Notes under the pieces: model-generated
The model's input: only the letters and a program-made list of their open reading frames with translations
Told to the model about the DNA's origin: nothing
Database searches by the model: none
Position numbers and translations under genes: made by a program
Assembly (NCBI GenBank): GCA_964291265.2
Contig: OZ219747.1
Location: forward strand, 1,728,001 to 1,792,000
From: Alphaproteobacteria bacterium
Lineage (GTDB): Bacteria; Pseudomonadota; Alphaproteobacteria; SP197
DNA: 64,000 nt
Reading direction: 5' to 3'
Shown: positions 331 through 37,279 of the stretch, piece by piece
How the letters are laid out: every line of letters begins with the position of its first letter
Numbering within the stretch: position 1 is the first letter of the stretch

Positions 331-1494
331 TCATGGTCGTGGTGGATTGCGCGTTACCGAACGACACATGGCGTCGATTCCTTCGCCGATCCGTTCGGCA
401 GCGGCTTCGACTTCACTGTCCGCCACGTGTGCGTATCGCAGGGTCATCGAAACCTGCCGGTGACCAAGGAACCTCGCCACGATCGGAAGCGGCACACCGT
501 TGAGGACAGCCTGGCTGGCGAAATTGTGTCGCAGGTCATGCAGACGCACATCCTCGATACCAGCCCGTTTGCGGAGGTCGAACCAGAGTGGGGCGGAGCT
601 TGGAGTGGGCAAGGTCGGATTGGAGGGCGAAGGAAAGACATAGTCGCTGCCGAAGTGGGACTGACGAGCGATGATCTGACGAGCCTCACTGTTGAGGTAG
701 ATTTTCCGCGGCCCTGTCTTGCTGTCCGCAAGATTGAGAGTGTCCGTGTCGACCTCGCACCATTTGAGCGTCCGGATCTCGTTGAAACGGCATCCCGTAT
801 AGTAGAGCATGCGGATCACGTCTGCCTGCGCCGCTCGCGAGGGGCGTTCGGTAACCATTCGGTCAAGTTCGGCGTGCAGCCGACGGGCTTCGTCCCGGGA
901 CAGGAACCGGTTGAAACGACGTTGCGGGTTGCGGCGAATGCCTCTGGCAGGGTTGGTCTCGAGATGGCCGTGGCTCTTGGCGTGATTGAGGATCTGGCAC
1001 AACGTATCGAGAGCGTGATTGGCGCCGCCTGGCGCCGTTCCGCTGTAGTGGTCGAACCATGCCATCACCTCCTTGCGTGTGATTCGGTCAAGCGGCCTGG
1101 CGCCAAAGGTCGGCAGGAGTTGAGTTTTGAGTGTAGTTCCGGTGGTCCGCCGGGTGGACAACTTGAAGCGGTCGAAACACTCGGGCCGCCAGACATCTGC
1201 GACAAAGTCGCCGAAGAGAGGGGACGGTGGCGTGTCCGTCACGGATTCCACGGCGCCGGACTGAATGGCGAGACACCGGGAGCGGGCCTCGTCGACAGTT
1301 ATGTGCGTCGCGGAACCCACAGTCCTGCGTTTCGAGGAGCCGTTGCCGTTGTCCATGAGAACGAACGACTTGTAACCGGAAGGCCGCACCCTGACACCAA
1401 GGCCTGTGACCCGCGTATCCCAGACAGTGAATTCGCCCGGTGCGGCCACCAGCCGGGAAACGGCACGATCACTCAGACGCATCTTGCGTGTCAT
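331..1494 (-). CDS. Tyrosine recombinase/integrase with N-terminal arm-binding domain (second gene of pair 1)
   Basis: VWDTRVTGLGVRVRPSG arm domain; TGCR, SKTG, HDLRH, LGH and RYAH catalytic motifs; ATG 1494 overlaps the upstream stop (ATGA). Confidence 0.93.
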   Translation of the reverse strand: MTRKMRLSDRAVSRLVAAPGEFTVWDTRVTGLGVRVRPSGYKSFVLMDNGNGSSKRRTVGSATHITVDEARSRCLAIQSGAVESVTDTPPSPLFGDFVADVWRPECFDRFKLSTRRTTGTTLKTQLLPTFGARPLDRITRKEVMAWFDHYSGTAPGGANHALDTLCQILNHAKSHGHLETNPARGIRRNPQRRFNRFLSRDEARRLHAELDRMVTERPSRAAQADVIRMLYYTGCRFNEIRTLKWCEVDTDTLNLADSKTGPRKIYLNSEARQIIARQSHFGSDYVFPSPSNPTLPTPSSAPLWFDLRKRAGIEDVRLHDLRHNFASQAVLNGVPLPIVARFLGHRQVSMTLRYAHVADSEVEAAAERIGEGIDAMCRSVTRNPPRP

Positions 1495-2627
1495 GCCTGA
1501 TCCCTCCCGCCCAGGATCGCACCGAGAGCCTCCGCCGCCTCGTGGACCGAGGCGTCGGCAAAATGCGTGTACTTCAGAGTGGTGGCGGGATTGCTGTGGC
1601 CCAGAAGCCGGCCGATGGTGAGGACCGTCTCGCCATGGGCGAGGGCCACGGAGGCATATGTATGTCGCAGATCGTGAAGGCGAACATCCGTGATACCTGC
1701 TTCTGTACGCACGTTCCGCCAGAAGTAGCCGAGCATGTCCTTCGACAGGCAACGGTCCCCGCGACGGGACGGGAAGATCCAGGAGCCGCTTCGGGGCAGC
1801 CCATCCAGGATCCGGCGCGCATGCGATGACAACCAGACCGTGCGGGGGCCTGCCTTGCTGTCACGCAGGTAGAGCTTGCCCTCGCGATAGTCCAACCACT
1901 TGAGTGTCAGGATCTCGGACTTCCGGGCGCCGGTGAGAAGCAGCAACCGCACGATTGCGGCCAGGAGAGATTGCTTCGCAGGCCTCTTGTCGAGAACGTC
2001 GCTCAACCGCCGGATCTCGTCGTGGTTGAGGAACCTCTCACGATTGCGCCGGCGGTAACGCTTGATGCCGGTACATGGGTTGGATCCCTCCGGGCGATAG
2101 CCGTAGACCTCCGCCTGGCGAAGGATCACCGACAGGACCGGCGCCGAGCGGTCGGCAGCCACAGGCGTCGCATGGAGCGACGCGAACCAGCGCTGAACGT
2201 CGTGTCGCGTGATCTCGTCTATCGCGCGGCCCTTGAACCGCGGCAAGATCTGGTTCCTGTAGTAGACGCGGTTGACCTCCAGCGTGCTCGGCTTCCAATG
2301 CCACTGGTAGCGCCGGAAGACCTCGTCCGCGACATCCTCGAACAGGAGGGATGCGGCGGCGACAGGCGAAGCCTCGTCACATCGGGACCGTGACGCCAGG
2401 AGAGATGTCACCTGCTCCCGGGCGCACTCCAGGGTCATGGTCCCGGCGTCGCCTATCGAGTGCCAGACCCTCTTGCCGTCGACCTGACTGTGGAGGAAGT
2501 AGCTCTTGCGGCCTGATGGCAGGACACGGACACCAAAGCCCCGGATGACGGAGTCGCGAATGTCACGGGTCTTTCCGGTTGGCTTGAGGGCATCGACCCG
2601 TCGTTGCGTGAGGCGATTCTTCGGCAT
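1491..2627 (-). CDS. Tyrosine recombinase/integrase with arm-binding domain (first gene of pair 1)
   Basis: GFGVRVLPSG; TGAR, SKAG, HDLRH, LGH, KYTH motifs. Confidence 0.93.
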   Translation of the reverse strand: MPKNRLTQRRVDALKPTGKTRDIRDSVIRGFGVRVLPSGRKSYFLHSQVDGKRVWHSIGDAGTMTLECAREQVTSLLASRSRCDEASPVAAASLLFEDVADEVFRRYQWHWKPSTLEVNRVYYRNQILPRFKGRAIDEITRHDVQRWFASLHATPVAADRSAPVLSVILRQAEVYGYRPEGSNPCTGIKRYRRRNRERFLNHDEIRRLSDVLDKRPAKQSLLAAIVRLLLLTGARKSEILTLKWLDYREGKLYLRDSKAGPRTVWLSSHARRILDGLPRSGSWIFPSRRGDRCLSKDMLGYFWRNVRTEAGITDVRLHDLRHTYASVALAHGETVLTIGRLLGHSNPATTLKYTHFADASVHEAAEALGAILGGRDQA

Positions 2628-2929
2628 AGCATTCTCTCCGATTCCTGTTGCACCGGGGGTACGGAAACGGCATGAATCCGCTTCCCCGGCAGAATCTCGT
2701 GAGAGAGAACGCTTTTTGTTTCAGTGGGTTACGGTTCCGTTCAGCACCGAAGGTGCGGAAGAGGTGTACGCGGAATTCGAGGAAAGGACCGGAGACGGCA
2801 TCGGTGGATCTTCCGGGGCGCCAGCCGCCGTTGCCGCGCGACTTCCAGACACCGGTCCGTTTCGCCTGACCGGAGTATGTCACGGACGGCGCCCGGCGAG
2901 GACTGGTGCGTGCCGGAGACCGCCTGACG

Positions 2930-18909: not shown

Positions 18910-19799
18910 GATCTCGCTTGTGGTTCTTTGGTCCTGGCGTTGACGACGTCGTTCCAGTCGGCGTTTTCCGGCGGTCTGCGTCTGTGGAACGAGACGTGGG
19001 AGGGGAGCTTCATCTTTTTGCGCAGGGTTTCGGCCTGTCGCTCTCCGGCCTCGTCGTGGTCCTGGGCGAGGACGATGGTCCTGACGTTGGGCAGGCTGCT
19101 TGCGGCGAGGCTGATCTGTTCGTGCTGTCTTCGCGAGGGTGCCCCGGCGGTGGAGAGGAAGGCGTGGCTGGGGGGACATTGGTCGATCTGGGCCAGGCTG
19201 AGGGCGTCGACGGCGCTTTCGGTGATGACGAGGGCCTCGAGGTCCGCGGCGGTTCCGGCGCGGACGGCGAACAGGCTTCGGGTTCCACCGGTGGCGAAGC
19301 GTTTCGGTCCGTCGGGGGGACCGATCTCGAAGCCGGTGAGCTTTCGCTTCCTGTTGCGATGGGCGAAGAGGACGCGTCCGTTGTGGTCGCGGCGGACCAG
19401 GGGGCGGCAGGTGTCGAGGGTCTCCGGGAGGATGCCGCGCCCGGTGAGCCAGTCCGGGGCCGCATCGGGCGTTGCCGCGGCCCAGAGGCTGCGGAAGTCG
19501 CGTGGCGCGGTGTCGGGTGCTGCGAAGCGGGTGCAGATGTCGGCGAAGGCCAGTCCGCGGTTGAGCATGAAGTCGATGACGGTTCCGTTGTCTTCATCGT
19601 TCTGGGTGTTGAAGTAGACCCAGTGTCCGTTGTTGAGGCACTTCGTGACGAGCTTCGGCAGGCCGGGTGCGCACAGGACGGGGTTGGCGCGTGTCGAGGC
19701 CTGTTCGTCGCGGACGTATCCCCAGTCGGCGGCGATGCGTTCGAACGGCATGCGCTTGACGGCGTCGAAGTCGACGCGGCGGGGTTTATCGGGTTTCAC
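18906..19799 (-). CDS. DUF3991/toprim (primase-like) domain protein
   Basis: DNGTVIDF, WLTGRGI, ITESAVDALS, LAQDHDEAGE, DWND. Confidence 0.82.
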   Translation of the reverse strand: MKPDKPRRVDFDAVKRMPFERIAADWGYVRDEQASTRANPVLCAPGLPKLVTKCLNNGHWVYFNTQNDEDNGTVIDFMLNRGLAFADICTRFAAPDTAPRDFRSLWAAATPDAAPDWLTGRGILPETLDTCRPLVRRDHNGRVLFAHRNRKRKLTGFEIGPPDGPKRFATGGTRSLFAVRAGTAADLEALVITESAVDALSLAQIDQCPPSHAFLSTAGAPSRRQHEQISLAASSLPNVRTIVLAQDHDEAGERQAETLRKKMKLPSHVSFHRRRPPENADWNDVVNARTKEPQARS

Positions 19800-20487
19800 G
19801 CCTGAGCCGCCAGGAGTCGCTGTCGATGGAGATGAGGGTTGCGTCGTGCATGAGCCGGTCGACGGTGCCGGCGATGCCGGAGGCGCTGGGGAAGACGCGG
19901 TCCCACTGGGCGAAGGCGAGGCTTGTCGTGACCATGGTCGAGCGGCGCTGATAGCGCCGCGAGACGATGGCGTAGAGGATGTCGGCATGGTGGCTTTCGA
20001 GGGTCACGTAGCCGATTTCGTCGAGGATGAGCAGGCGGGGCCTGGCGAGGATCGCGAGGCGGCGGCGCAGCTCGCTGCGCGAGACGGTCTCGGCGAGTGC
20101 CTCGAGCAGTTCCGGCGCCTTCTCGAAGCGGACGGTGTGGCCGTGCAGCAGGGCCTGGTGCGCCACGTTGGCGGCGATCATGGTCTTTCCGGTGCCCTGC
20201 CCGCCGACGAGCACGGCGTTGTCCGCACGGTCGACGAAGCCGAGGCCGAGGAGCGCTTCGACATGAGCCCGGCTGATGTCGCGCGGCCATGTCCAGTCGA
20301 AGTCCGCCAGGGGCTTGAAGGCGGGCAGCCGCGCCGCGGCGCGGCGGCGCTCGTGGCTGCGGGCCCTGCGGGCCTGTTCCTCGCCGCTGACCACCTCCTC
20401 GATCCATGCGGTCCCGGCGACCTCGTCCCAGCGTTCGACGAGCCCGTGGAGGCCGAGCGCCCGGGCACGCTCCCTGAGCTCGCTCAT
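19786..20487 (-). CDS. istB: IS21 helper ATPase
   Basis: DFDWTWPR, GGQGTGKT Walker A, LLILDEIGY Walker B, VDRLMH; ATGA overlap with istA. Confidence 0.92.
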   Translation of the reverse strand: MSELRERARALGLHGLVERWDEVAGTAWIEEVVSGEEQARRARSHERRRAAARLPAFKPLADFDWTWPRDISRAHVEALLGLGFVDRADNAVLVGGQGTGKTMIAANVAHQALLHGHTVRFEKAPELLEALAETVSRSELRRRLAILARPRLLILDEIGYVTLESHHADILYAIVSRRYQRRSTMVTTSLAFAQWDRVFPSASGIAGTVDRLMHDATLISIDSDSWRLRRETR

Positions 20488-21977
20488 GTCTTGTTCCTGG
20501 CGCTGGCTTCGGGCCTGTCGTAGGCGTCGAGAGCGGTCCCCCGCGGCGTCGTGCCACGGCCGCCGCGGCCGTCGTCGGCGATGCTGAGGGGCGGCAGGCC
20601 CTGCTCCCGGCGGCGCTCCTCGATGATGACGCGCACGGTTTCGGGGTGGCACGAGCCGCGCTCCAGCGCCGTGGCGACAGCCCGGTCGAGAGCGTCGGCG
20701 CCGTGCGCGTTGAGAAGCGTCTCCAGCATCCGGGCGCAGGAGGCCACGTTGCGCCCGTTGGTCCCGGCGCGCGCCAGCATCTCCTCGGCCCGCGGCACGG
20801 TGCGCAGGACCCGGTCGCGGACGCTCATGGAGCGGGCCCGCCGCTTGCCCGCGGCGATCGCCCTGGCATGCTCCGGATCGGTGACGGCCTGCTTCCTGTC
20901 GTAGGAGCGTCGGTGGCGCGCGACCTCGTCGGCGCCGTCGAGGATGCGAACCTCGTCGCGGTCGGCGACCAGCGTCAGCAGGGCCTTGGAGAAGCCGGGG
21001 GGAACGCTGTAGTCGTTGGTGTCGAAGCGGGCGTGGCAGGTCTTGTCGATGCGCACCGGGCGGACCTCGTGATGCGGGAAGGGGTCGACGGGAAGGACGA
21101 TCAGGTGCTCCCTCTCCCGGGCGAAGGCGTCCCGCACCAGGAGACTGTCGTCGTCCGGCCAGGGCCGCTCCGCGGCGGCGCCGAAGCACCACTCCCGAAC
21201 TGCGGCGTTGAGCTCGCCGAGCGGGACCGTGATGTCGCGCCCGGCGAAGAACCCGGTGCGCGCGAAGCGCACACGGCGTTCCACGCGGCCCTTCTCCTGC
21301 GGGCTCCTGGGCCAGGCGGCGCTCGGTTCGAAGGCATAGTGGGCCGCAAGGCCGAGCAGCATCGGATGATAGGTGACCGCCTTGCCGCGGCGCGTCACCA
21401 CGGCACTCTTCAGGTTGTCGTACAGAAGCCTCCGCGGCACACCCCCGAATGCCGCGAAAGCCTCGACATGGCCTTGCAGGAAGCTGGCCATCCGCGCGTC
21501 GTGGAACAGGCTCAGGACAGTCTGGCGCGAGTAGCTGAGGGTGACGAGAAGCCCCATGAGCCTGCGCTCCGCCCGGCCGATGCGGACCTTCCCGAACTCG
21601 GCCCAGTCAACCTGCGCCTGCTCGCCCGGAAGGAAGCTCAGCCGCAGCGACGGCTCGGGCCTCTTCACCGGCCTCAGCCCGAGGCGGCGCAGGTCGTGAC
21701 GGAAGTGATCCTCGCCGCCGCGGTAGCCCAGAGCCACGACCTGTCGCCAGAGCGTGCTGGCCGGAAGGTCCGGCGACGCCTCAAGACGCTCCCCGAGGAA
21801 GGCAACGAAGGGGTCGATGAGCTTGGCCCGCGGCCGCCGCTCCTGCCCCGACGCCTTGAGCGCCCGCGTCACCGTGCCGTGGTGCACGCCGAGATGCCGG
21901 GCAATCGTCCCCACAGCCCAGCCCTCGGCCCGCGACAGCCGCACGATCGTCGCCCGCGTGTCCTCGTCGATCGCCAT
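20484..21977 (-). CDS. istA: IS21-family transposase
   Basis: N-terminal HTH, PGEQAQVDW, LYDNLKS, EKGRVER, NDYSVP. Confidence 0.94.
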   Translation of the reverse strand: MAIDEDTRATIVRLSRAEGWAVGTIARHLGVHHGTVTRALKASGQERRPRAKLIDPFVAFLGERLEASPDLPASTLWRQVVALGYRGGEDHFRHDLRRLGLRPVKRPEPSLRLSFLPGEQAQVDWAEFGKVRIGRAERRLMGLLVTLSYSRQTVLSLFHDARMASFLQGHVEAFAAFGGVPRRLLYDNLKSAVVTRRGKAVTYHPMLLGLAAHYAFEPSAAWPRSPQEKGRVERRVRFARTGFFAGRDITVPLGELNAAVREWCFGAAAERPWPDDDSLLVRDAFAREREHLIVLPVDPFPHHEVRPVRIDKTCHARFDTNDYSVPPGFSKALLTLVADRDEVRILDGADEVARHRRSYDRKQAVTDPEHARAIAAGKRRARSMSVRDRVLRTVPRAEEMLARAGTNGRNVASCARMLETLLNAHGADALDRAVATALERGSCHPETVRVIIEERRREQGLPPLSIADDGRGGRGTTPRGTALDAYDRPEASARNKT

Positions 21978-23270: not shown

Positions 23271-23351
23271 ATGGCGGCATGGTATGGATCGAAGGCGACG
23301 ACGGGTCTGAGCCAGGCGATCGTCGCGGCCATGCCGCCGCATGACGTGTAG
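23271..23351 (+). pseudogene. 5' fragment of the split Dam-like adenine methyltransferase (MAAWYGSKATTGLSQAIVAAMPPHDV*)
   Basis: GGAG RBS; YGSK and MPPHDV motifs continue in frame into YIEAFLGGG across the 37280-37291 repeat. Confidence 0.92.
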
Positions 23352-23758
23352 CAGAATTAGGGGTGAGGTTGTGCCACTTTGTTCGACTGATTTACGTTCA
23401 ATGGTCTCTCGTTTCAGCGTTATCCTACCTCTGGTTATCGTCATGTCAACCCATGCATGCGCTGGCGTAGAGTCCATGCAACGGGGGGATTCCCGCGACG
23501 GATTGTGACACCTGGGGACATGCTGGGATCATCGAAGGACGAGAGCGACGGAACGACAGCGGCGCCGGGCCGATATCCCGCTCTGCATGGGGCATGAGCG
23601 GACATGCCATGAGATCACGTACGGTTATCCTGCTACAACGCCTTGTCATGGGTGTTTCATGGGGGTATAATCACTCCATTCTTCCCTCGATTGCCCACTT
23701 GCATGGACTGTCAAGGGACTGTTTCCCACACCAAGCACTCACGACACGGGAGAATCCC

Positions 23759-24088
23759 ATGGCCGGAAGACCTGCGGGCGAGAAGCGCAAGGCGCGTTCC
23801 GTGATGGCGACCGACAGCGAGTGGCAACGCATCCGTGAGGGCGCCGCGGCAGCCCGCCTGTCGATCTCGGACCACGTGTTGAAGGTGCTCCTGGCGCCGC
23901 CGTCACCACCGTTGCAAGCCGCGGGCACGTTCCTCTCGGCCCGGGTGCAGCGCCGGGTGGCGCGCGCCGTGCTGGTTCTGGAGTGCATCGAGAAGATGCG
24001 CCTCGATCGCGCCGAGCTGGGCTCGGCATGGGAAGAGATCGCCGCCGAGGTCGATGGATGGCTCGACGACGAGGCGGCGCTGGGATGA
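23759..24088 (+). CDS. Ribbon-helix-helix / MobC-like protein 1
   Basis: RSVMATDSEWQRIREGAAAARLSISDHV pattern; GGAG RBS. Confidence 0.7.
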   Translation: MAGRPAGEKRKARSVMATDSEWQRIREGAAAARLSISDHVLKVLLAPPSPPLQAAGTFLSARVQRRVARAVLVLECIEKMRLDRAELGSAWEEIAAEVDGWLDDEAALG

Positions 24089-24101
24089 CCGGGAGGACGC
24101 C

Positions 24102-24434
24102 ATGAAGCTCGCGCGGCGGCACTGCATCTACTGTGATCCTCGGACATGGGAGAAGATCCGCAGGCGCGCCCGCAAGGCGGGCATGCCGGTCTCGCGTTTC
24201 GGGGTGCTGTGCTGTCTCAAGGCTGTTGAGGAGGGCACGGCCGAGGCGGTTCAACCGTCCGGCCATGCCCTCGTGATACCGCCGGACCGGCAGCGTCGGC
24301 TCCACGACGACATCGAGGCCATCTGGAACACAGGCCACGTCATGCTGGACGAGTCGGGGGAGACGAAGATCGGCGTGCTGACGAGCAACGTGCTGCGCTT
24401 CCTGCGGCTGACCGAACCGGAGGAAGAAGAATGA
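24102..24434 (+). CDS. Ribbon-helix-helix / MobC-like protein 2
   Basis: HCIYCDPRTWEKIRRRARKAGMPVSRFG; GGAGG RBS. Confidence 0.7.
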   Translation: MKLARRHCIYCDPRTWEKIRRRARKAGMPVSRFGVLCCLKAVEEGTAEAVQPSGHALVIPPDRQRRLHDDIEAIWNTGHVMLDESGETKIGVLTSNVLRFLRLTEPEEEE

Positions 24435-24853
24435 GGACACCGCGCCAGCGGCAGCAGGGCATGTCGCATTCGATCTCCTGCACGGACGAGGAATGGGAGA
24501 TGATCTGCGAGGGCGCGGCCCGGGCGGGGATCGGCGCTTCGGCATGGTTCACACGGTGTGCGCTTGACGTGAACCCGCTGTCGGGGAAGGCGCGTCCCCT
24601 GGTCCTCGACGAAAGGCAACAGGAGAACCTGGTCAAGGCGATCACGCGCCTTGCCGAGCCGTTTTCGGGTCATCCGGAGAGACTGTCCCGCATCTGGGAG
24701 GATGTCCGGTATCTCCTGCGGAAACGCGTTCGGGCGCTGATGCGACAGGGCCGGTCCGACGAAGCGCGCGCCAGGCTTCGGGAGGCGTTCGGCGACAAGC
24801 GGGCCGCCTGGATCGAAAGCTGGGCGCGGCAGCGGCGCCATGGCGATGACTGA
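24431..24853 (+). CDS. Ribbon-helix-helix / MobC-like protein 3
   Basis: HSISCTDEEWEMICEGAARAGIGASAWF; ATGA coupling. Confidence 0.7.
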   Translation: MRTPRQRQQGMSHSISCTDEEWEMICEGAARAGIGASAWFTRCALDVNPLSGKARPLVLDERQQENLVKAITRLAEPFSGHPERLSRIWEDVRYLLRKRVRALMRQGRSDEARARLREAFGDKRAAWIESWARQRRHGDD

Positions 24854-24858
24854 GAGGA

Positions 24859-27800
24859 TCACATGGACATGTGAGGCCCCTTCTGATGAAGGATGTGCCG
24901 TTGCTCCCTCAGCTCGTCGGCCTGCTCGCGGCTCCTGATGAAGCGCTCCTTCTCGTTCGCCCAAGGCGCCCGGTAGCAGCCGCGCCCGACGAGCTGACGG
25001 CGCTCGATCTCCACCTCGTGGACGGCGTCCCGTCCGTTGACGCTCCGCACCTGCAGGGTGCAGAGATCCTCGGCCTCGGTCTTGCCCGCGACAATCCGCA
25101 GAAGGACGCCTTCGCAGTGGCGTGGTTCGACGGCCACGCCGGGATCGATGTCATAGCGGCCGGGTATCCCGGTGGAAGGATCGGGCATCATGGTCCAGCG
25201 GAGCTGGTCTCCGACGACGACCTTGTGGCTGCAGGCGATGCGATACCAGTCGTCCGGCGTGGATCTCTCGCGGGCCAGGGCCGCATCGCGCAGCCTCTCG
25301 TCGCTCCAGGTGGCGCGGTGCACCGAGTGGCGCAGCAGGTCCGTGCATGCCACACGCTCGACCCGCCCCTTCCATGAGCCGTTGTCATGCTGCACGGCGC
25401 CGACGCGCTCGACGAGGAGCGTGTCCTTGCCGTGGCGTCCGCCGGTCTCGCCCGGCCACACCACCACCAGTTCCTGCACGGACCCGTCATGGGCGAGGCG
25501 CAGCCGGTCGCCGGTCACAAGCTGGCTCTTTCCGCGCCAGTCGATGGTGAACGCGCCACCGGGCGGGCGATTGCGCAACCGGTCGGCTTCTTCGCGCACC
25601 ATGGCGGCGATGAAGTCCAGGTCACGGCGAGCCTCGGCGAGCCTCTCCGTCACCTCGGCAAGGCCGGTCTCGAGTCGCTCCTTCAGGGCGGGAAGACAAG
25701 GCAGGTGCCGCGCGTAGCAATCCAGGTCCAGCAGGTCCTGGGCCCCGTCATGCCAGGCCTCGGCCTTCTTCTGCCAGCGTGGCCAGGCGTCCAGCAGGGT
25801 GATCGGCAGGTTGCCCTTGCCGGGCGCCTCTCGAAGCGCGCGATGCTCGCGGTCGAGACCCGCCATCTCCTTCGCCTGCGCCTCGATCCGGGCGCATTCT
25901 TTAGTGCAGGAGGCGTGTTCGGTGACGACGGGTTCGAGGCGCCGCCTTGCCACGGCGGGAAGACTGCGGTCGTCGGCCAGTTCACGCACGTCGTCGAACA
26001 CCGCGCCATAGCCTGCCGCATGAAAGGGGAGAACACCGTCACGCCTTGCCTGTCGGTGCAGCGCCTTGAGGTCCCTCGTCACCTCGAGGAACCGTTCGAA
26101 CGGTCTGTGCCGTTCCAGCTTGCCCAGCGCCCTCGAGATTCGTTCCGCGGCAGCGGAATCGAGATGGGGACGGTGCCGTTCACTCGCAAGCAGACCGCGG
26201 CCCCTTGCGGCGAGCTGGCGGGCAAGCGCGGCGAGCGAAGGGTAGTCCTCAAGGTCGGTGATGACGGTGTCGCGGCCCTTGCGGGAGCGGTCCCGCGCCT
26301 CGGCGTCAAGGACGCGCCAACGCCGGGTGTGTTCGCGGGCCTCGTCGAGGAACCGGGCGATGTCGCCGCGGCATGCCCGGCCTTCCGCATCGCCTGCCAG
26401 AACGCTGCGCGCCTGACGGGCGGCGGCCTCAGGCAAATCGTCGTGCTCCAGGAGCGCACTGGCCCGCGTGACAAGGCCGTGCCAGCCTACCATGCCGAAG
26501 GGAATCCGCTCCTCGGCACGCGCCTTCGTCAGAAGCCGGTGGTGGGCTGCATCGAACCGCGCCCAGGCGGCGTCGGTTCCGGCCAGCCTCTCGCAAACGC
26601 TCAGGCGTTCGCCCGCATCGCCCGCCTGCGCCTCGAGATGGGGTTGCCACAGGTCGGGCCTCCTCAGCATCGCCCGCCACTGCCGCCGGGCCTTGAGCCA
26701 GCGGTCCCGCCACGCCGGCCAACCGGGCCGTTCCGCCGTCGGCCGCTCCGGGGCTTCGGCCGCCAGCCGGCGGTAGCTGTCGAGCAGCCTGCCGGTCTCC
26801 GCGGCCAGGGCCGCCACCCTGTGCTCGCGATCCCGGGCCTGCGCCTCGTCGGCAAGCACGGCGCGCACGGACGAGCGCACCGGCTGCGGCACGTTCTTCA
26901 TCGCCGCCAGCACGCGCGCCCGGGCCACGAGATCGTCATGACCCTCGACATGGTAGGGGATCGTGTTCCGGGCGGCGGCGCGTGCGTCAACGGCCCGACG
27001 CTGCGCCTCGAACCGGGCACAGGCCTCGTCACATGTCCGGGCTTCCCGGAGTGCACCGAGACATGCCGTGATCGCGCGGGAGAGCTTCGGCCGGGCGGCA
27101 AGGACGGGCCGGACCTCATGGTCCTCGCACATCTCCTGCCAGGCGGCCTCGATCGACGAGACGGCCGTGATCCACTCCGCGTAGCCGGCCGTCTCCACCA
27201 CGAGACGGGCCTCGCCGACGGCCTCTTCAACCAGGTCCCGACGCAGGTGAAGCAGCCTGCCGGCTTCGCCGTGCAGCGCCTCGATGTCGTGCAGGGGATC
27301 GCGGACCTTCCCGCCTTTCCCGTCGTCCGGGGCGCCTGCCTCCTCAGGCGGCGGACCTTCGGCCACGAGCGCTCCGCCCTCGTCTTTGTGTCGCACTTCG
27401 TGGCGCATCGCGGCCTTCTCCCCGGGCGAAGGCCGGCGCATCGTCTTCTCCGGGACCGCGGCCCGGAGCTCGTCGGGCGTGACGCCGATCGCCTCCAGGG
27501 CCGTCGCCCTCTCGCCGGTGTTCGCCTCCAGCGTCTCGATCAGCTGCTCGCCGTTGTCGGTCAGCACCATGACATGATCGCGGGCACGGCTGATCTCGAC
27601 ATAGAAGGTCGCCTGGTCGGTCAACAGGCCGTGTCCGGAATCGAGGACCGCGATGACGCCGTCCGCCGTGCTGCCCTGGGCCCCGTGCACCGTCGAACTC
27701 CAGGCATGGTCGATGTGGCGCAGCTGGGGATCCTCGTGCTTGAGCGACAGCATGCCGCCATCGGCGGTGCGCAGTCGCACCCGCCTGCCGGTGATCGCCA

Positions 27801-30213
27801 CGATCTCCGCCTGTTCGCCGTTCACCAGGGCGCGCTCCTTGTCGTTGCGCGTCCAGCGGATGCGGTCGCCGGCTCTGAGTTCGATGGCACGGGGCTCGTA
27901 GACCTCCAGGCGGTAGCGGATGTGTCCCTCCGGCCTGATCCGGCGGCTTGTGCCGTCGGGATGGGAGAGTAGCACATGGTCGCCCTCGATGCCGGTCACC
28001 GTGCAGGCCTCGTCGGCCTTCACCCGGTAGTTCACGAGGTCCTGGTGGAACACCACCACGTCGCCTTCCCCGTAGTTGCGCACATCCGCCTTCTCGGCGC
28101 GCGTCATGCCGAGCCCGACCAGGCGTTCGAGCTGCAGGACCTGTCCGTGCAGCACGCCCTCGGCCGCCAGGCCCTCGCGGACCGTCCGGTTGATGTCGGC
28201 GCGCAAGGCGTGGGTCGGGGCCAGGAGCAGCGTGCGGGCGCGGGCGTCTGCATCCAGCTCCAGCCAGGCCCGCGCCGCCTTCTCCGCCAGGTCGTCGTGC
28301 GCCACCTCGACGAGGCCGGCGCCCAGGAGACGCACCGCCTCGCCGGGTTCGCCCTCCAGGACCGACAGGACCGCCGCCTTCAGATCCGGGCTGCGCTGGC
28401 GGCGGATGTCGCTCATCTGCGCCGTCGCCATCCCGGCCTGCTGCAACTGCCGGAACGGCTGGCCGGCATCGACCGGGCGGAGCTGGCCGGTGTCGCCCAC
28501 CAGCACCAGGCGGGCGATGTCGAGGTTCCGCGCGATGCGCAACAGGGAACGCATCTGCGCCGTCGACACCATCGATGCCTCGTCCAGCACCACGACCGAC
28601 CCGGCGAAGAGCTCGAGAAGCTTCCTGTCAGGACTCCGTCCGATGTCCTCGGCGTCTGCCGCCTGGCAACGCGTGAGGAACCATTGCAGGGTGCGCGCAT
28701 GGATGCCCGCTTCGCGCTCCAGGACGCGCGATGCCGCAGCCGAGGGAGCAAGGCCGATGATCCGGCGTTCCCCGGCGAGAGCGCGGACCTGGCGCAGCAT
28801 GGTGGTCTTGCCGGTCCCGGCACGGCCCTGGACGCCGATGATCCGGTCCCTGGAGAGGAGAATGGCCCGCACCGCGTCGCACTGCCCCTCGGTCAGGCCC
28901 GATCCCGCCAGACGTGCCGCGATATCCCCGTCGCGGGCCAGGGTCCCGGCCCGGCCGAGGCCGGCCTTCATCATGGCGATCACCGCGCGTTCCGCCTTCA
29001 GGGTCCGGTCGGTGACGAAGGCGCGGTCGGCGCGCCGCAACGAGGCGTCGACCAGGTGGCCGTCCCTCACCAACTGCTCGATCGCCTGCCTGATCTCATC
29101 CAGCGCATGGCGCCCCGGCGAGTGGGCCAGCGCCAGCGTCTCGAGCTCGTGCGCCGCGAACACCGATTGCCGCTCCTCGAGGTGTTCCGTCGTGCGGGCC
29201 ACGATCTCCAGGGCCGACAGGTCCTCGCCCGCCTCTGTCGGCCGACGAGCCCGGGCGGCCGCCAGGTCGGCGTCGAGGCCGAGATCACGTACCCGCTCCG
29301 CCCACACCGTCTCCAGCATCGCCCGCAGCGGTTCGTCCTTGCGCCGCCGCGTGGCCAGCGTCGCCACCTGCGACGCGGCCGTGCTGTGCTCCCAGCCCCT
29401 CTCGCGCAGGTAGGCGAGGATCTCGCTGCGCCGCGTCGAGAACGCATCCCGCAGCCTCCGGTCGTAGCCCGCGATCTCGAAGCTCGGGATCCGTCCCGCC
29501 ATGGCGGGACGGACATCGTAGCCCCGTTCCATCAGCCGCCGCGACAGCTCGTTGCGGTAGTAGGCGCCGATCTGCCGGGCATGGCGGTGGAGCAGGGTGG
29601 CCTCGATGCTGCGCCAGCGCCCCTGCGGGTCGCGCGTCATGTTCGCGATCACGGCATGGGTGTGAAGCTGGGGGTCGAGATTGCGGCTCGCGACATGGCG
29701 GAACGTGGCCGCGACCATGTGGGGCGCCTTGATCCGTGGACGCCGGCGCGTCGCGGGATCCCAGCCGCGGGTCTCCAGGAGGTTGGCCTCGATCCAGTCC
29801 AGGGTCGCCCGCACCGCCGCGTCGTGGGCCTGCACCACGCCGCGGTCGCCATGGGGATGGCGCTTCGTCGGCAGCAGGGCCGCAAGGGAAACGGACTTGG
29901 GCGCCGAGAAGGTGATGTCAAGCCCCGGACGGTGCTCATGGGCGCCATCGCGCCTGCGCCCAAGGCGGATGCCGCAACCGGGCACATGGCCGGCCAGGAG
30001 AGACTCGAACTTGCCGGCGGCGACATGGAGGTCGGGCCGCAGACCCAGGGCCATCGCTCCCCTGCCGTGCCAGAAGCTGGCGTTGCGGTGTTCCGCGTTC
30101 TTGGCCCGGCCGGCATCGCCCTTCGCCCCGGCGGCCGTATAGTAGCCGCCCTCGCGGCGCAGGTAGTCGGCCGTGGCCGACGCCGATGTCAGGTTGCGGA
30201 CCGACGCAACCAT
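24859..30213 (-). CDS. MOBF (TrwC/TraI-like) relaxase-helicase with long C-terminal extension
   Basis: DYL..GGYY, DITFSAPKSVS, DPQLHTH, FSTRR, GRAGTGKT, VLDEASM, TVHGAQG, YVEISRAR. Confidence 0.93.
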   Translation of the reverse strand: MVASVRNLTSASATADYLRREGGYYTAAGAKGDAGRAKNAEHRNASFWHGRGAMALGLRPDLHVAAGKFESLLAGHVPGCGIRLGRRRDGAHEHRPGLDITFSAPKSVSLAALLPTKRHPHGDRGVVQAHDAAVRATLDWIEANLLETRGWDPATRRRPRIKAPHMVAATFRHVASRNLDPQLHTHAVIANMTRDPQGRWRSIEATLLHRHARQIGAYYRNELSRRLMERGYDVRPAMAGRIPSFEIAGYDRRLRDAFSTRRSEILAYLRERGWEHSTAASQVATLATRRRKDEPLRAMLETVWAERVRDLGLDADLAAARARRPTEAGEDLSALEIVARTTEHLEERQSVFAAHELETLALAHSPGRHALDEIRQAIEQLVRDGHLVDASLRRADRAFVTDRTLKAERAVIAMMKAGLGRAGTLARDGDIAARLAGSGLTEGQCDAVRAILLSRDRIIGVQGRAGTGKTTMLRQVRALAGERRIIGLAPSAAASRVLEREAGIHARTLQWFLTRCQAADAEDIGRSPDRKLLELFAGSVVVLDEASMVSTAQMRSLLRIARNLDIARLVLVGDTGQLRPVDAGQPFRQLQQAGMATAQMSDIRRQRSPDLKAAVLSVLEGEPGEAVRLLGAGLVEVAHDDLAEKAARAWLELDADARARTLLLAPTHALRADINRTVREGLAAEGVLHGQVLQLERLVGLGMTRAEKADVRNYGEGDVVVFHQDLVNYRVKADEACTVTGIEGDHVLLSHPDGTSRRIRPEGHIRYRLEVYEPRAIELRAGDRIRWTRNDKERALVNGEQAEIVAITGRRVRLRTADGGMLSLKHEDPQLRHIDHAWSSTVHGAQGSTADGVIAVLDSGHGLLTDQATFYVEISRARDHVMVLTDNGEQLIETLEANTGERATALEAIGVTPDELRAAVPEKTMRRPSPGEKAAMRHEVRHKDEGGALVAEGPPPEEAGAPDDGKGGKVRDPLHDIEALHGEAGRLLHLRRDLVEEAVGEARLVVETAGYAEWITAVSSIEAAWQEMCEDHEVRPVLAARPKLSRAITACLGALREARTCDEACARFEAQRRAVDARAAARNTIPYHVEGHDDLVARARVLAAMKNVPQPVRSSVRAVLADEAQARDREHRVAALAAETGRLLDSYRRLAAEAPERPTAERPGWPAWRDRWLKARRQWRAMLRRPDLWQPHLEAQAGDAGERLSVCERLAGTDAAWARFDAAHHRLLTKARAEERIPFGMVGWHGLVTRASALLEHDDLPEAAARQARSVLAGDAEGRACRGDIARFLDEAREHTRRWRVLDAEARDRSRKGRDTVITDLEDYPSLAALARQLAARGRGLLASERHRPHLDSAAAERISRALGKLERHRPFERFLEVTRDLKALHRQARRDGVLPFHAAGYGAVFDDVRELADDRSLPAVARRRLEPVVTEHASCTKECARIEAQAKEMAGLDREHRALREAPGKGNLPITLLDAWPRWQKKAEAWHDGAQDLLDLDCYARHLPCLPALKERLETGLAEVTERLAEARRDLDFIAAMVREEADRLRNRPPGGAFTIDWRGKSQLVTGDRLRLAHDGSVQELVVVWPGETGGRHGKDTLLVERVGAVQHDNGSWKGRVERVACTDLLRHSVHRATWSDERLRDAALARERSTPDDWYRIACSHKVVVGDQLRWTMMPDPSTGIPGRYDIDPGVAVEPRHCEGVLLRIVAGKTEAEDLCTLQVRSVNGRDAVHEVEIERRQLVGRGCYRAPWANEKERFIRSREQADELREQRHILHQKGPHMSM

Positions 30214-30637
30214 GGATCGTCATCCCGGCGCAAGGCCTCGGGCCATGCGATGGCCGGAGAACGAAGCAACCTCGTGCAAGACGTCTCGGGGGCGTGGCGC
30301 ATGATCCTCGGGATGGAGCGGACTCGGACAGCGCCCATCATACCGTCCACGTCCGCACGGCGGGAAACCGACAACAAGCCGCACTGCACCATGCATCGCC
30401 ATGTTCGGAGCGGACAGGGGACATGCCGCCGGTCCGGCATGCCTTGTGGTCGGCACGACCACGAAGAAAGGGATGGCGTCCATGTCCCCCTTCGGCAAGG
30501 GTAACCGGCGCCGCGCACGTCCCTCAACAGGAACTGCTATCATCGATCGGCATGGACCGGTCGCCGCGGCGGCCGGACCGTCACGGATGCGGACGGCATC
30601 CCGATCGACGAGACCCGGAACCCTGCAGGCGACGACG

Positions 30638-31960
30638 ATGGCGCTTCACCTTGTTCACCACGATCTCTCCCCGGCATATGAACTGACGGAGGACGAACAG
30701 CAGGCCCTGCGCCGGATGGCCGACGGCGATCGGAGCGAGGATCTCCACGCGCCCGTCCTCGAGATCCTGGTGCGGGCGCACACGGAACGCCTGTGGCTCG
30801 CCTGCGACTGCCGGGGCGAGAGCGGCAGGCCTCCGGTCAACGGACCCTGTCGCAACCGCTCAGGCCGCTACTACTGGCGCCGCCTGCCACCACCGCACGT
30901 GGCGCATGCCAAAGGCTGCGTCTACTCCAGCATCACCGTCACGCGCCAGGCCGGGGACCCGGAAACCCGGGCGCCGGTGGAACCGTCCGACGACAGGTTC
31001 TTCACGGTTCTCCCGATCGAGCCGGAGGATGAGCAGGTCGCCGAACCGGACGCCCTGCCGGACCACCGCGGGTCGCGGCACACAAACCGCCCCTCGAAGC
31101 TGCGCCAGAGGCTGTTCGAACTCATGGTGTATGCCGGCCTCAACCGTCTTCCCGATGCCGAAACCGCGAACGCCAGGGAATGGTCGAGGCGGATCAGGCA
31201 GGCCGCAAGGGGGATCGAGATCGCGCCCGAACGCTCGCTGGGTGACCTCGTCTTCCCCTACCGGCGCATGTGGCGGATGGACTGGATCGACGCTCACATG
31301 CAGGACCTCGCAAGAACCTGGCCGGATGGTCACCGGCCCCAGGCGTTCGTCTGTGGAGCCGTCCGGGGCGTGGACGATCAAGGCGTCACCGGCGCCAGGG
31401 GATCACGCCTCGACGTCGCCTCCCGGGTCACGCGGCCCATGATTGGCGGCAAGGCGGTGCGCCCGCCTTGCCTCTTCATGGGCGTGGTGGGCCTGGCGGA
31501 AGACGCCACCTCCTTCGCCTGCCTCTCCGGCCATGCCCAGCCCATCGTCGCCATGAACTGCCCGGTGCCGGTGGAATCCAGCGCCGAGCGCAAGGCGTTC
31601 GGCACGCTGAGGAAGACCCTCAGGATCATGAGGCGCGAGTTCGATGCCGTGAGGTTCACCCTCGAGAAACCGCTGTTCGAAACCGACACGCAGTACGGGC
31701 CGTGCCTTCCCGACTTCGTCATCCGGGCTCACCCCGATGCCTGGGAGGGTCGGGACAGCGTCGACTTCATGATCGAGGTCATGGGCTTCGAGGACGAGGG
31801 CTACCGCCGGCGCAAGGAAGACACCCACCAGGCCATGAGAACCCTCGGCACGATGTGCCTCATGGAAGCGAACTGGTTCGACAGGCCCCGGGGGCTGGCA
31901 GCGGCAGGAACCAACGTCACCGACAAGATCCGCGCCGTGCTTCGAAGACGGCTGGCCTGA
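30638..31960 (+). CDS. DUF1173-like protein with Cys/His motif and C-terminal PD-(D/E)xK-like region
   Basis: WLACDC, HAKGC, PVESSAER, LPDFVI...IEVMGF...YRRRK; start uncertain. Confidence 0.6.
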   Translation: MALHLVHHDLSPAYELTEDEQQALRRMADGDRSEDLHAPVLEILVRAHTERLWLACDCRGESGRPPVNGPCRNRSGRYYWRRLPPPHVAHAKGCVYSSITVTRQAGDPETRAPVEPSDDRFFTVLPIEPEDEQVAEPDALPDHRGSRHTNRPSKLRQRLFELMVYAGLNRLPDAETANAREWSRRIRQAARGIEIAPERSLGDLVFPYRRMWRMDWIDAHMQDLARTWPDGHRPQAFVCGAVRGVDDQGVTGARGSRLDVASRVTRPMIGGKAVRPPCLFMGVVGLAEDATSFACLSGHAQPIVAMNCPVPVESSAERKAFGTLRKTLRIMRREFDAVRFTLEKPLFETDTQYGPCLPDFVIRAHPDAWEGRDSVDFMIEVMGFEDEGYRRRKEDTHQAMRTLGTMCLMEANWFDRPRGLAAAGTNVTDKIRAVLRRRLA

Positions 31961-32236
31961 CGTCTGCGTGGGAGCCGGGGCAAGGGCATGCGAGCCAGCT
32001 CCACCGAGGATTCAAGCCAGCCATTCAGCCGTCCATTGAACCTCTGTAGTAGTTTTCGTGAATCACCTGCATCGGTATCGAAAGTCACAGGGTGCGTTGT
32101 CGCTGCGCCCTGTCTTCGGAAGACCACGTCGGTGGAGGACAGCGCCACTGCCCGGATGCGAAGTCCGTGGAGACGGGTGCAGGGACGTCGCGCCCGCAGG
32201 AACGACACGCTGTTCAAATCAAACGGAATGGTTTCA

Positions 32237-32479
32237 TCAGTACTGCCGATCGGCTATAGCGCAAACAACAGACCGGCGCTGGTGGGAGGCGTGGGGCTGC
32301 TTCGCTCGTTCGACGGGTGGTTGCCATTGATCCAACAACAGACCCGCCTTCTTCGCGTCTTCGTAGCTCTCGATGTCCTCGTGCCCGACTCGCTTCGATC
32401 GCCAATGTCCGTCGATACCAGAAAACCCATTTCCTTTGAGAATTTTCCCGCACACGGGACACTCCTTACCGCCCTTCAT
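32237..32479 (-). CDS. Small CxxC...H...H zinc-finger-like protein
   Basis: CPVCGKILKGNGFSGIDGHWRSKRVGH; GGAGG RBS; homologue at 57785. Confidence 0.65.
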   Translation of the reverse strand: MKGGKECPVCGKILKGNGFSGIDGHWRSKRVGHEDIESYEDAKKAGLLLDQWQPPVERAKQPHASHQRRSVVCAIADRQY

Positions 32480-32834
32480 CGTCCGCCCTCCCGTCACACG
32501 GGAAATGCGCCCGTAGGGCTGAGGTGACCACGACTAGGGGGTGGTGGTCAAGCTCTTCGGGATTTCTTCGCATCCATATTCGCACGGCATCCCGAATGTC
32601 CCCGCTGGTGCTGCCAGATGTGCAGAACTTCAACTGTGGATCGAAACCGGTGTAGTCCCAAATGTTTTCTAATGCATCTCGAACACCGATGACGTACATC
32701 ATAAAAGCCCCTTCCAACGCTATGTCGTCAGAAGTCGCCCAATCCAACAAATGGTTGCCATCTTGAAAGGCCAGTGTCTCTTTCGGTACTGCAACCAAGG
32801 CTGTGCATATCGCGCCGATCAGCCATTTTCTCAC
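32466..32834 (-). CDS. Rap1a/Tai-family immunity-like secreted protein
   Basis: Signal peptide, DGNHL, YVIGVRD, FC, NPEELDH, ALRAHFPC. Confidence 0.75.
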   Translation of the reverse strand: MRKWLIGAICTALVAVPKETLAFQDGNHLLDWATSDDIALEGAFMMYVIGVRDALENIWDYTGFDPQLKFCTSGSTSGDIRDAVRIWMRRNPEELDHHPLVVVTSALRAHFPCDGRADDEGR

Positions 32835-32968
32835 TCGGCATCTCCGAGACGGCGGTGCAACGCGGTCCGGTACGGACTTGGTGCGGCGGAACAGGGCGAG
32901 GACCGGCTTCTCGAGCGTCGCGCCCACGAGATCGTGCTGCTTCGGATCAGACATAGAAACGCCTCTGA

Positions 32969-34192
32969 TCATTGCACCGCCCTCCATTGAGCCATGGTCT
33001 TGCCGCCCTTACTCCGGTTGCAACCGGAACAAAGCAGTTGAAGGTTGTCGGGGTGATCAGTTCCACCCTTCGACCTGGGTAGAATATGATCCACATCCAT
33101 CACGCGAAACGGGAAGTGCGTGTTGCATCCCACACAGACGCCCTCCTGTTCCCCATAGAGGCGATGACGGTGCGTCCGGTAGTTGGGAAGATCGCCAAGG
33201 TCCGAGCGCTTCGGTGGGTCTGTGATCGCAATTGCGCCGCCCCATAGATTGCCGCCAAGATGCTTCCCGCCCTTCTCGTTGGCGCGATCTTCCGCAATCC
33301 TCTCATTGACCAACTTCACGGCCAGCGCCGACAGGTCGATGCCTGCCCACTGCCGCCCCATGCGATCTGCAGCTACCAACGCCGTCGCACAGCCGCAGAA
33401 CGGATCAAGCACTATGTCGCCGGGGTTGCTAGAAGCGCGGATTACGCGCTCTAGCAGTGCCAGAGGCTTCTGCGTCGGGTAACCAAGGCGCTCCGAGGAA
33501 GATCGCCCGATTGCGTTCATGTCCCAAACATCGCGCATTGAGGCCATAGTATACCAACGGCCAAATTCATCCTGATATTTCTCGACTCCTTTAAATCCAG
33601 GCGGCGCGCTTGTTGAATAAGATCTTTCTTTTTGAACGTTGAAAACGTGTTTGCTATGCTTCGCCGCATAGTACAGCAGAATGTCGTGCTTACGCCCGAA
33701 CCAACGCTTGCTAACACCGCCGGTTCGATAGGACCATACAATTTCGTTCAAGAAATTCTTATGCCCGAAAACTCCATCCATAAGCAGCTTAAGGTAGTGC
33801 GAAGCAGTGGGATCGCAATGCAGATAGATGCTCCCGGACGGCTTCAGAATGCGACTCATTTCCAGTAATCGCACGGCCATGAAGATGAGATATGACTGCA
33901 TACCCTTGCCGTGCGACTGGCGAGCGGCCTCGATCACGGAGTAGGCGGCGGGGTTGCGGTCTGCCAGTTCGCCATGCTCGTGGACGTCGATATCGTCCAA
34001 GGTCCACGCGTCTTTGAAAGCAGCGCCCGCTGCTTTGCTTCCTATCGGCGCCTCGTAGTGGCGATTGCTGTTGAACGGTGGGTCGAGATAGATCAAATCG
34101 ATACAGCCATCGTTCATGCCGCGCATGATCGACAGGTTGTCGCCAGTCCAGACCGTGCTGCTGGCGAAGTTCGCGAAGTTCGGTTCAGGCAT
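32969..34192 (-). CDS. N6/N4 DNA methyltransferase fused to a C-terminal HNH endonuclease
   Basis: IYLDPPF, YPTQKP, LDPFCGCAT; CVGC...DHILPRSKGG...NLQLLCSGCNRSK. Confidence 0.92.
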   Translation of the reverse strand: MPEPNFANFASSTVWTGDNLSIMRGMNDGCIDLIYLDPPFNSNRHYEAPIGSKAAGAAFKDAWTLDDIDVHEHGELADRNPAAYSVIEAARQSHGKGMQSYLIFMAVRLLEMSRILKPSGSIYLHCDPTASHYLKLLMDGVFGHKNFLNEIVWSYRTGGVSKRWFGRKHDILLYYAAKHSKHVFNVQKERSYSTSAPPGFKGVEKYQDEFGRWYTMASMRDVWDMNAIGRSSSERLGYPTQKPLALLERVIRASSNPGDIVLDPFCGCATALVAADRMGRQWAGIDLSALAVKLVNERIAEDRANEKGGKHLGGNLWGGAIAITDPPKRSDLGDLPNYRTHRHRLYGEQEGVCVGCNTHFPFRVMDVDHILPRSKGGTDHPDNLQLLCSGCNRSKGGKTMAQWRAVQ

Positions 34193-34197
34193 CGTTT

Positions 34198-34665
34198 TCA
34201 ATCTTCAATCGGCCGTTGCGTGATGGATAGAGAGGCTTCGCCAGTAATCGTCCCCGACATTGCTATTTCGAGCCGCATCGGTGTCGCAAGCCTAAGTGTG
34301 CCATCCGCCATAATGACGACTGTCGTCCGGTCTGGGAGTGCCGCATAGCGATGCCCATCTCGGAGCGGATACGTCGGAAGCTGATTGACGGTCTCCATCA
34401 GGCTGGCTAACTGCGCAGACTCCCGTGCCTCGAGCGCCATCTGTAGTGCGGTGCGAAGCGCCTTTTCTGATCCGACAGTTTCGATATTCAGCACCTGCTG
34501 TATCGAGGGCGACACAGAATTCTTCGCCTCAAGAGCCGCAATGCGCTTGCGAAGGCCCCAAAACCCGACCATCGTTAGAAGACTGCCTGACAGGAACCAC
34601 CCGACCCGTATGAACACTTCGGTGAATGTGGCACCCAAAATTGCTTGATATGTGAACTCTTCCAT
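34198..34665 (-). CDS. Hypothetical protein with N-terminal membrane anchor
   Basis: 155-aa ORF with a hydrophobic segment, abutting the MTase-HNH gene. Confidence 0.55.
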   Translation of the reverse strand: MEEFTYQAILGATFTEVFIRVGWFLSGSLLTMVGFWGLRKRIAALEAKNSVSPSIQQVLNIETVGSEKALRTALQMALEARESAQLASLMETVNQLPTYPLRDGHRYAALPDRTTVVIMADGTLRLATPMRLEIAMSGTITGEASLSITQRPIED

Positions 34666-34885
34666 CTGCGCATCATACCGCCTTCTGCCGCACCATCAAC
34701 CTCTTTGTAATCCCCTTGATTTAAGTAGGCTTGACTTTCTGACTGATGAGGCTCGCACCCAAGCTCTACGCCTTGAGGAATTCTCTCGTTGACGCCCTCA
34801 TTACGCATTGAACATCTCGGTTGGAGAACATGCAGATACGCTATCAATGGTTGGTGTACCCGTCCAGACTCCTTGCGCCGTCGGA

Positions 34886-37164: not shown

Positions 37165-37279
37165 GTTGCCTCCGGTGTTCTGTGACATCGGGGGAAGAAA
37201 GGCATCGCCTTTCCCTCTGATGTTGCAGAAACGAGAGGAGTTAAGTATGTTATATCAGTTGATTAGCACCACAGGTGCG

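Follow-up and report, generated by a model that had tools for sequence, protein, structure and literature searches.

XerC and XerD, which act at dif, are paralogues of about 35–40% identity that are both catalytic and work on an asymmetric site; they are housekeeping enzymes without an arm domain, and their genes are not adjacent. Mobile elements with two tandem tyrosine integrase genes have also been described. The closest are MTnPi1–3 of Prevotella intermedia, 'Tyr duo' mobilizable elements of 16–18 kb at TTAC-N5-AA sites (PMC4755523, PMC5704250); in the available part of that literature Tn1806 is cited as another tandem integrase case, and the MTnPi authors suggested that both integrases are needed (PMC4755523). 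A list of five groups of recombinase transposons includes, in the part of the source available, none with just two arm-type enzymes (PMC10214605). Here we describe a 64,000-nucleotide stretch of an Alphaproteobacteria genome (GCA_964291265.2, contig OZ219747.1; C2:1728001-1792000 of genome G000, 4.8 Mb, 65% GC; hereafter the window) that holds two pairs of overlapping genes, intA and intB, for arm-type (DUF4102) tyrosine integrases. The pairs at 331–2627 and 34886–37164 are the left ends of two real inserted elements, w1 and w2, whose layout by sequence is near end, intA, intB, cargo and far end. The original prediction compared these pairs with XerCD, RIT elements and lambda-type integrases, and missed both the MTnPi duo and the multi-recombinase Tn554, SE and GInt groups. 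The two-integrase kind of element is already in print; what sets this family apart is its sister DUF4102 paralogues, its ACAC anchor and its matching ends.

Like MTnPi1–3, the family combines two tandem tyrosine integrase genes, a relaxase, several copies per genome and a site of low specificity made of a four-base anchor with five free bases. The MTnPi integrases, however, lack significant homology to each other, whereas the window's first and second proteins are 34–37% identical; the MTnPi attachment site is TT(A/G)C-N5-AA, whereas here it is ACAC[C/G]-N5, with no right-hand AA and an anchor that is not AT-rich; and MTnPi resides in Prevotella, as opposed to Proteobacteria and Acidobacteriota here, where no primase or excisionase match was found, the comparison with MTnPi being by published description. 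In domain plan (DUF4102 arm, core-binding and catalytic domains) the pair resembles the IntSXT subgroup (P4/SXT, DUF4102) and nests among solitary DUF4102 integrases, but IntSXT integrases are, in the available account, single genes with fixed conserved targets (tRNA, guaA, prfC), in contrast to two genes and dozens of unrelated targets here (PMC8138268). GInts, according to the accessible portion of their description, likewise have an operon at one end, cargo, a short conserved far end, 10–11-base direct repeats, several copies per genome and an overlap that tunes integration, but use four genes, ginABCD (three recombinase-like genes plus ginD), fixed target genes and imperfect repeats, whereas here two genes are followed by unrelated cargo and the repeats are exact in 22 of 24 elements (PMC5385486). 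SEs and Tn554 also carry two catalytic tyrosine recombinases at one end, and w1 has the same polarity, with the target allele at the integrase end; in the part of the source available, they encode one ordinary and one large recombinase with accessory genes (tfp, srap, tnpC) and leave a 6-base distal footprint unlike the target (PMC10214605), unlike the elements here, with integrases of 373–387 amino acids (aa) each, no conserved third gene and, in 22 of 24 cases, an N5 repeated exactly at the two ends. RIT elements share overlapping recombinase genes but have three of them, without arm domains, in 3.5 kb with terminal inverted repeats, which the pairs here do not. XerC/XerD provide a model for a possible mechanism, from which the window integrases differ by their arm domain and low Xer scores. 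A literature search that did not cover subscription journals returned no paper on this proteobacterial paired-integrase family, and the accessible parts of PMC5587801, PMC12884075, PMC9229058 and PMC6156455 contain nothing relevant to it.

As predicted, the four genes lie on the minus strand in two pairs of the same layout, first gene then second, joined by an ATGA overlap (Table 1). The two first proteins (A1 of w1, A2 of w2) are 53% identical and the two second proteins (B1, B2) 52%, whereas A and B share 34–37% (E about 1e-50 to 1e-65); the proposed two conserved subunit types are upheld, as against a local duplication. The R-K-HxxR-H-Y signature could be located residue by residue in A1 (R235 K258 H318 R321 H344 Y353), B1 (R236 K259 H319 R322 H345 Y354), A2 (R235 K258 H314 R317 H340 Y349) and B2 (R240 K263 H323 R326 H349 Y358). 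All four match Pfam Arm-DNA-bind_3 (DUF4102, PF13356), three above the curated cut-off and B1 at 25.8 bits against a cut-off of 27, and all also carry core-binding and catalytic domains; across the family, the arm domain is weaker in distant second genes. Their NCBIfam XerC/XerD scores of 50–69 bits, against cut-offs of ~330, identify them by sequence as something other than XerC/D, and a PDB search returned distant recombinases only.

The near end of the family, about 120–140 bases upstream of intA, reads ACAC+[C/G]+N5+(0 or 1 base)+CGCACC-N3-GGTGCT. Among 84 distinct palindrome-bearing near ends, 81 have ACAC at −10/−11, and no consensus emerges in the host flank; across 81 elements, 72 different N5 sequences occur. 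The core is asymmetric, its two halves having no inverted-repeat relation, and targets keep only the ACAC half constant. The palindrome is absent from a further six loci, of which five form a subfamily in one host gene at ACACC. In genome G000, eight of ten pairs have the standard end, another lost it to an IS66, and the tenth, a distant pair, has a palindrome of variant form. The 23/28 alignment of the two upstream ends in the window stands, and direct reading confirms both GCACC-N3-GGTGC palindromes; family-wide, only the palindrome and ACAC (GTGT on the plus strand) are conserved; between them lies a 5-base overlap that varies, and the final bases of the match belong to the host flank. As single-stranded DNA, the palindrome folds weakly (z −2.1 and −0.5), and its alignment contains compensatory changes as well as mismatches, both of which bear on whether it is a hairpin or an operator. 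In the alignment, the spacing from palindrome to CTCTC in the group with a 10-base core exceeds that of the 11-base group by about 13 bases, roughly one helical turn, with CTCTC at 50 as compared with 41–43.

A search for repeats gave 12 far ends and, because it assumed a match, we built a far-end matrix from the element side only, blind to N5. Applied to 30 untrained elements, this matrix found a site scoring at least 10 in 12, ten of them with exact N5; the threshold was chosen after the scores had been seen, and two training elements score lower but ranked first. The exact-N5 far end of L072 is the second-ranked site, behind that of another element, and the L050 site (score 10.1) has 3 mismatches. 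No far end was found for the other 18 of the 30 in the 9–60 kb scanned, or for g917 within 60 kb, and we discarded a low-scoring L051 candidate, the flank of which differs from the empty orthologues. In total, direct repeats delimit 24 elements of 10–52 kb (median 22 kb), which together with the collected flanks places the motif at the element boundary, as had been proposed. N5 is identical at both ends in 22 of the 24; w1 and L053 have one mismatch each, and the empty orthologues of L053 are too diverged to show which end keeps the target allele. Far ends also have TTG at −99 to −102 (TTGACA within one mismatch in 16/23; background 2%), GAGA near −60 (23/23; background 4%) and TGCAAC near −160 (17/21; background 3%). 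TGCAAC recurs in 21/21 near ends, which also have CTCTC, the inverted form of GAGAG. GAGAG/CTCTC and TGCAAC may represent two classes of arm site, and the TTGACA box a putative outward-facing promoter from which intAB would be expressed in the circular form.

Element w1 spans 35.36 kb, extends beyond the left edge of the window and interrupts an amidohydrolase gene that is intact (526 aa) in a relative; its flanks are contiguous in 8 relatives. The repeat sought upstream of the window was found at its far end, with one mismatch. At the mismatched overlap base the near end agrees with 7 of 8 empty orthologues and the far end does not, so that the near end keeps the target allele, as heteroduplex resolution predicts. 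The w1 cargo comprises a complete class 1 DISARM cluster (drmD, MI, A, B, C) and a relaxase split by an insertion sequence (IS); the same IS21-family element also lies at 19786–21977 of the window. Element w2 sits in the methylase gene of an IS66-linked repeat, of which the genome has 16 empty copies. Contigs from a public run, possibly of the source sample, cover w2 with no differences in their six longest pieces, and the empty-site joint in those contigs is explained by the 16 empty IS copies. No mating-pore gene was found among the scanned w2 open reading frames (ORFs), oriT and the pore genes of other elements not having been searched for.

The expectation of a family of integrative elements was borne out by delimited ends, direct repeats, empty sites in IS copies, relatives and Shewanella plasmids: an integrase module lies at one end, direct repeats at both, and the empty site exists elsewhere. 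Of 22 delimited elements, 18 have a TrwC homologue and the four smallest lack one; the elements are integrative, and most of them are likely mobilizable. Genome G000 has 10 intact pairs, all with the −4 start/stop overlap, plus fragments, and no full-length lone member; matches occur in 14 of 22 genomes of the same genus, with up to 24 per genome. Named relatives are metagenome-assembled genomes of Alphaproteobacteria and Acidobacteriota, and 38 plasmid records have a match; of ten opened, eight have a tandem pair (four Shewanella, two Vibrio, one each in Photobacterium and Sphingobium) and two a single gene. Among 400 sampled genomes of the phylum, with four candidates scored per genome, 13 had a match and none of 14 loci had a full partner within 1.5 kb; as only solitary relatives appear in this sample, the paired family is patchy. 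In Shewanella, the same site is occupied by the pair in four plasmids, flanked by exact ACACCCCACG repeats and accompanied by a different cargo in each (6.8–11.0 kb), and is empty in three plasmids. The empty site (L225-L227 near 1510-1545) is followed by a palindrome with 10-base arms and by TGGTTGTTTG, an arrangement also present at the near end of the element itself, and this target may itself be an old element end. On the S. oneidensis MR-1 megaplasmid (NC_004349.1), an 11.0-kb element (SO_RS22330/22335) has its repeats at 32329 and 43331.

We constructed trees from 183 full-length proteins from all loci, repeating 85 of them by IQ-TREE. The paired genes all group in a single clade (SH-aLRT 99) nested among solitary DUF4102 integrases; the 26 first genes likewise group together (SH-aLRT 94), and first and second genes have mirror subgroups from sphingomonads to Shewanella. 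The single paired clade and the mirror subgroups indicate that the pair stems from one old duplication, and the separate phylogenies group the genes by position and not by locus, contrary to a recent duplication. The six catalytic residues R-K-H-R-H-Y are kept in 80/80 first and 76/76 second genes, and median dN/dS is 0.21 and 0.24, respectively (131 non-independent comparisons), which by sequence shows purifying selection on both genes and supports both integrases being catalytic, as predicted. Conserved positions specific to one type number 44 in A and 35 in B. Tandem pairs L106 and L107 (G030) were left out of the A/B counts since they place among solitary integrases; with gaps of 22–30 bases, they form a second, independent tandem DUF4102 arrangement among otherwise solitary relatives. 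Acidobacteriota pairs L009, L010 and L013 match only from residue ~90 on and may lack the arm domain.

Lambda-type enzymes require a match between overlaps. Each element here is flanked by its own exact 10-base repeat and so likely needs a matching overlap: the relaxed target choice that had been proposed holds across the family and not for the individual element. Each 10-mer has 8–41 exact sites on the main contig, enough for many targets. Where the genome has empty copies (w2, g952, g2142 and g2108), the two ends are identical to the empty allele; g3679 has no exactly matching empty copy. In 2 of 4 independent cases, the closest siblings at different sites (at least 92% identity) have N5 sequences one base apart, a difference found in 42 of 1932 distant pairs. 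We consider it probable that the overlap is borne by the element and must match, and doubtful that the enzymes would recognise ACAC only while the five target bases reach both ends by biased repair, as a true target duplication. Copying of this sort would give the equal ends of the four elements with empty copies and the random N5 between elements of at most 92% identity, and IntDOT, in the part of the report available, tolerates a 5-base heterologous coupling sequence (PMC2817482); but unrepaired heteroduplexes give unlike ends, as described for SEs and Tn554 in the accessible text (PMC10214605), and the single-base differences seen among closest siblings, and between the two ends of w1 and of L053, fit inheritance with drift.

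That the two overlapping arm-type integrases act together on an asymmetric crossover site is in our judgement the leading reading, at about even odds. Such joint action is favoured because the core halves are unlike, only ACAC is fixed in targets, both enzymes appear catalytic and are coupled, and no excisionase-type Pfam domain was matched in 90 small ORFs of w1 and w2. Excision to a circle would join the far-end promoter to intAB and bring the CTCTC/GAGAG and TGCAAC arm-like sites around the core; cleavage would be shared in the manner of XerC and XerD, one strand pair to each integrase type; strand exchange would require the element's 5-base overlap to match the target, an occasional single mismatch letting the overlap drift; and transfer would use the TrwC relaxase and a borrowed mating pore. 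In GInts, as described in the accessible text, all gin genes are essential and overlap identity raises integration tenfold (PMC5385486), and MTnPi1-c without its second integrase is reported, in the part available, as not excised (PMC4755523). The stricter version is more tentative, and we place it below an even chance: an obligate heteromeric integrase in which IntA and IntB each serve one core half, need no excisionase, read only ACAC[C/G] and take their address from a changeable 5-base overlap. A division of duties by direction, in which one integrase integrates and the other excises or replaces the excisionase as directionality factor, each as a homo-oligomer, seems unlikely to us: it accounts for two intact catalytic sets, two arm-like motif classes, the missing excisionase match and the MTnPi1-c result (PMC4755523), but leaves the asymmetric core and the tight start/stop overlap (−4 in 55/84 pairs) unexplained, and in GInts each gene is, per the available text, needed in both directions (PMC5385486).

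It is less probable again that one integrase moves the element alone and the other serves a separate reaction such as circle-dimer resolution, cargo capture or segment inversion. Solitary relatives, 31–39% identical, do work singly in islands and phages, and identical or near-identical pairs accompany wholly different cargo at the one Shewanella plasmid site; but the paired clade contains no intact lone member, six apparent loners each having a partner that carries a frameshift, is interrupted, survives as a remnant or runs into a contig end, and neither w1 nor w2 yielded a second internal recombination site. It is hardly credible, even in a genome rich in repeats, that the pairs reflect recent local duplication, decay or an assembly artefact: A and B are 27–39% identical within pairs across the family and group by position, not locus, the same layout occurs in complete plasmids of cultured strains, and the public-run contigs cover w2.

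Several points weigh against joint action with an inherited overlap. One integrase type would bind the ACAC half-site and the other the CGCACC half-site, and which protein sits on which half is a guess. The second genes fall on the other side of the branch, unresolved at its base and forming no clade of their own, and the mirror trees are explicable by gene linkage alone. Elements w1 and g2108 are 93–95% identical (16 kb shared at 95%), yet 4 of 5 overlap bases differ, and L072 and L074 (92%) differ at 3; these differences need many hops or end swapping, although ends are indeed swapped between elements, which tempers the w1/g2108 case. Empty w1 orthologues have GCGC in place of ACAC and so represent the alleles of other species rather than the true target of w1. 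The circle junction was not seen in three contig sets, which says little because contigs drop rare forms.

Swapped ends were traced in one genome through a RIT element of 3.58 kb with three recombinases, 99.6–100% identical copies and ~90-base inverted ends, which occupies the same intB codon (about 228) in four diverged elements (L046, L056, L059 and L127 of G013) in both orientations. The RIT element is thus a parasite of intB, with its target inside that integrase gene. The L046 far end carries the N5 of L127 and the L127 far end that of L046; the two lie on opposite strands (G013:C1 about 2136500 and 4790), and the reciprocal swap is likely a large chromosomal inversion between the 99.6% identical RIT copies in their intB genes. 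Movement of elements after intB loss was ruled out, four identical truncations being later RIT insertions.

The elements also enter other mobile DNA and one another. Five of the eight elements with intact ends (G000:C2 953035, 2142636, 1765290, 2108116 and 3680041) lie inside multi-copy IS or repeat elements, and two independent elements share the same site of one IS that has ~29 empty copies. At L004:7193, one element is inserted in the start of another's intB, at ACACC within conserved EYTVW codons, and at G000:C2:2366779 an element sits in a drmA-like helicase gene, at the codons of its DEAH-like motif; this kind of gene is cargo in other members. The subfamily without the palindrome (L054, L064, L068, L070 and L042; also L059, L130 and L143) is found in several genomes within a single host gene, at ACACCAGTGG, a site that palindrome-bearing members also occupy. 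Plasmid cargo or neighbours include a bacteriocin-like cluster, a retron and a darobactin cluster (L146:20832-24865; L154:23228-25093; L156:29134-33741).

Table 1 Features of elements w1 and w2, in window positions unless another contig coordinate is given
Feature	Position	Strand	Comment
drmD start	1-224	minus	first gene of the class 1 DISARM cluster carried by w1; continues off the window
intB of w1	331-1494	minus	387 aa, arm-type integrase; ATGA overlap with intA
intA of w1	1491-2627	minus	378 aa, arm-type (DUF4102) tyrosine integrase
w1 TGCAAC motif	2647-2652	minus	candidate second arm-type site
w1 CTCTC tract	2701-2710	minus	inverted counterpart of far-end GAGAG; candidate arm-type site
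w1 palindrome GCACC-N3-GGTGC	2744-2756	.	inner edge of near end
w1 near-end direct repeat ACACC+TCTTC	2758-2767	minus	
3' remnant of host amidohydrolase gene	2768-2927	plus	gene split by w1; end approximate
w1 far-end repeat ACACC+CCTTC	G000:C2:1695397		one mismatch; outside the window, 35.36 kb from near end
Whole w2	23339-37290	minus	13.94 kb between perfect 11-base direct repeats
w2 far-end direct repeat	23339-23349	minus	single copy in 16 empty IS copies of the genome
Promoter-like TTGACA-16-TAGGAT of w2	23422-23449	minus	outward-pointing, 100 bases inside far end; would face intAB in a circle
Two NikA-like mobilisation genes of w2	24054-24853	plus	weak Pfam matches below cut-off
TrwC (MOBF) relaxase-helicase of w2	24859-30213	minus	
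DNA methylase-HNH fusion and Rap1a-family protein	32466-34201	minus	w2 cargo
intB of w2	34886-36046	minus	386 aa, arm-type integrase; ATGA overlap with intA
intA of w2	36043-37164	minus	373 aa, arm-type integrase
w2 palindrome	37266-37278	.	near end
3' part of D12 adenine methylase gene and neighbouring IS66 transposase	37275-39352	plus	methylase gene split by w2
w2 near-end direct repeat ACACG+TCATG+C	37280-37290	minus	

A two-gene system with defined ends on the megaplasmid of a standard laboratory strain, S. oneidensis MR-1, makes the division of chemistry in multi-recombinase elements (Tn554, RIT, GInt, SE and MTnPi) directly testable. If the overlap does set the target, the elements would be a candidate tool for large insertions, with loads of 10–50 kb re-aimed by changing five bases. 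The paired-integrase elements constitute an apparently undescribed and abundant family, with up to about 16 elements per genome in the genus; its members transport defence genes such as DISARM, restriction systems and a retron, interrupt host genes and give rise to chromosomal rearrangement.

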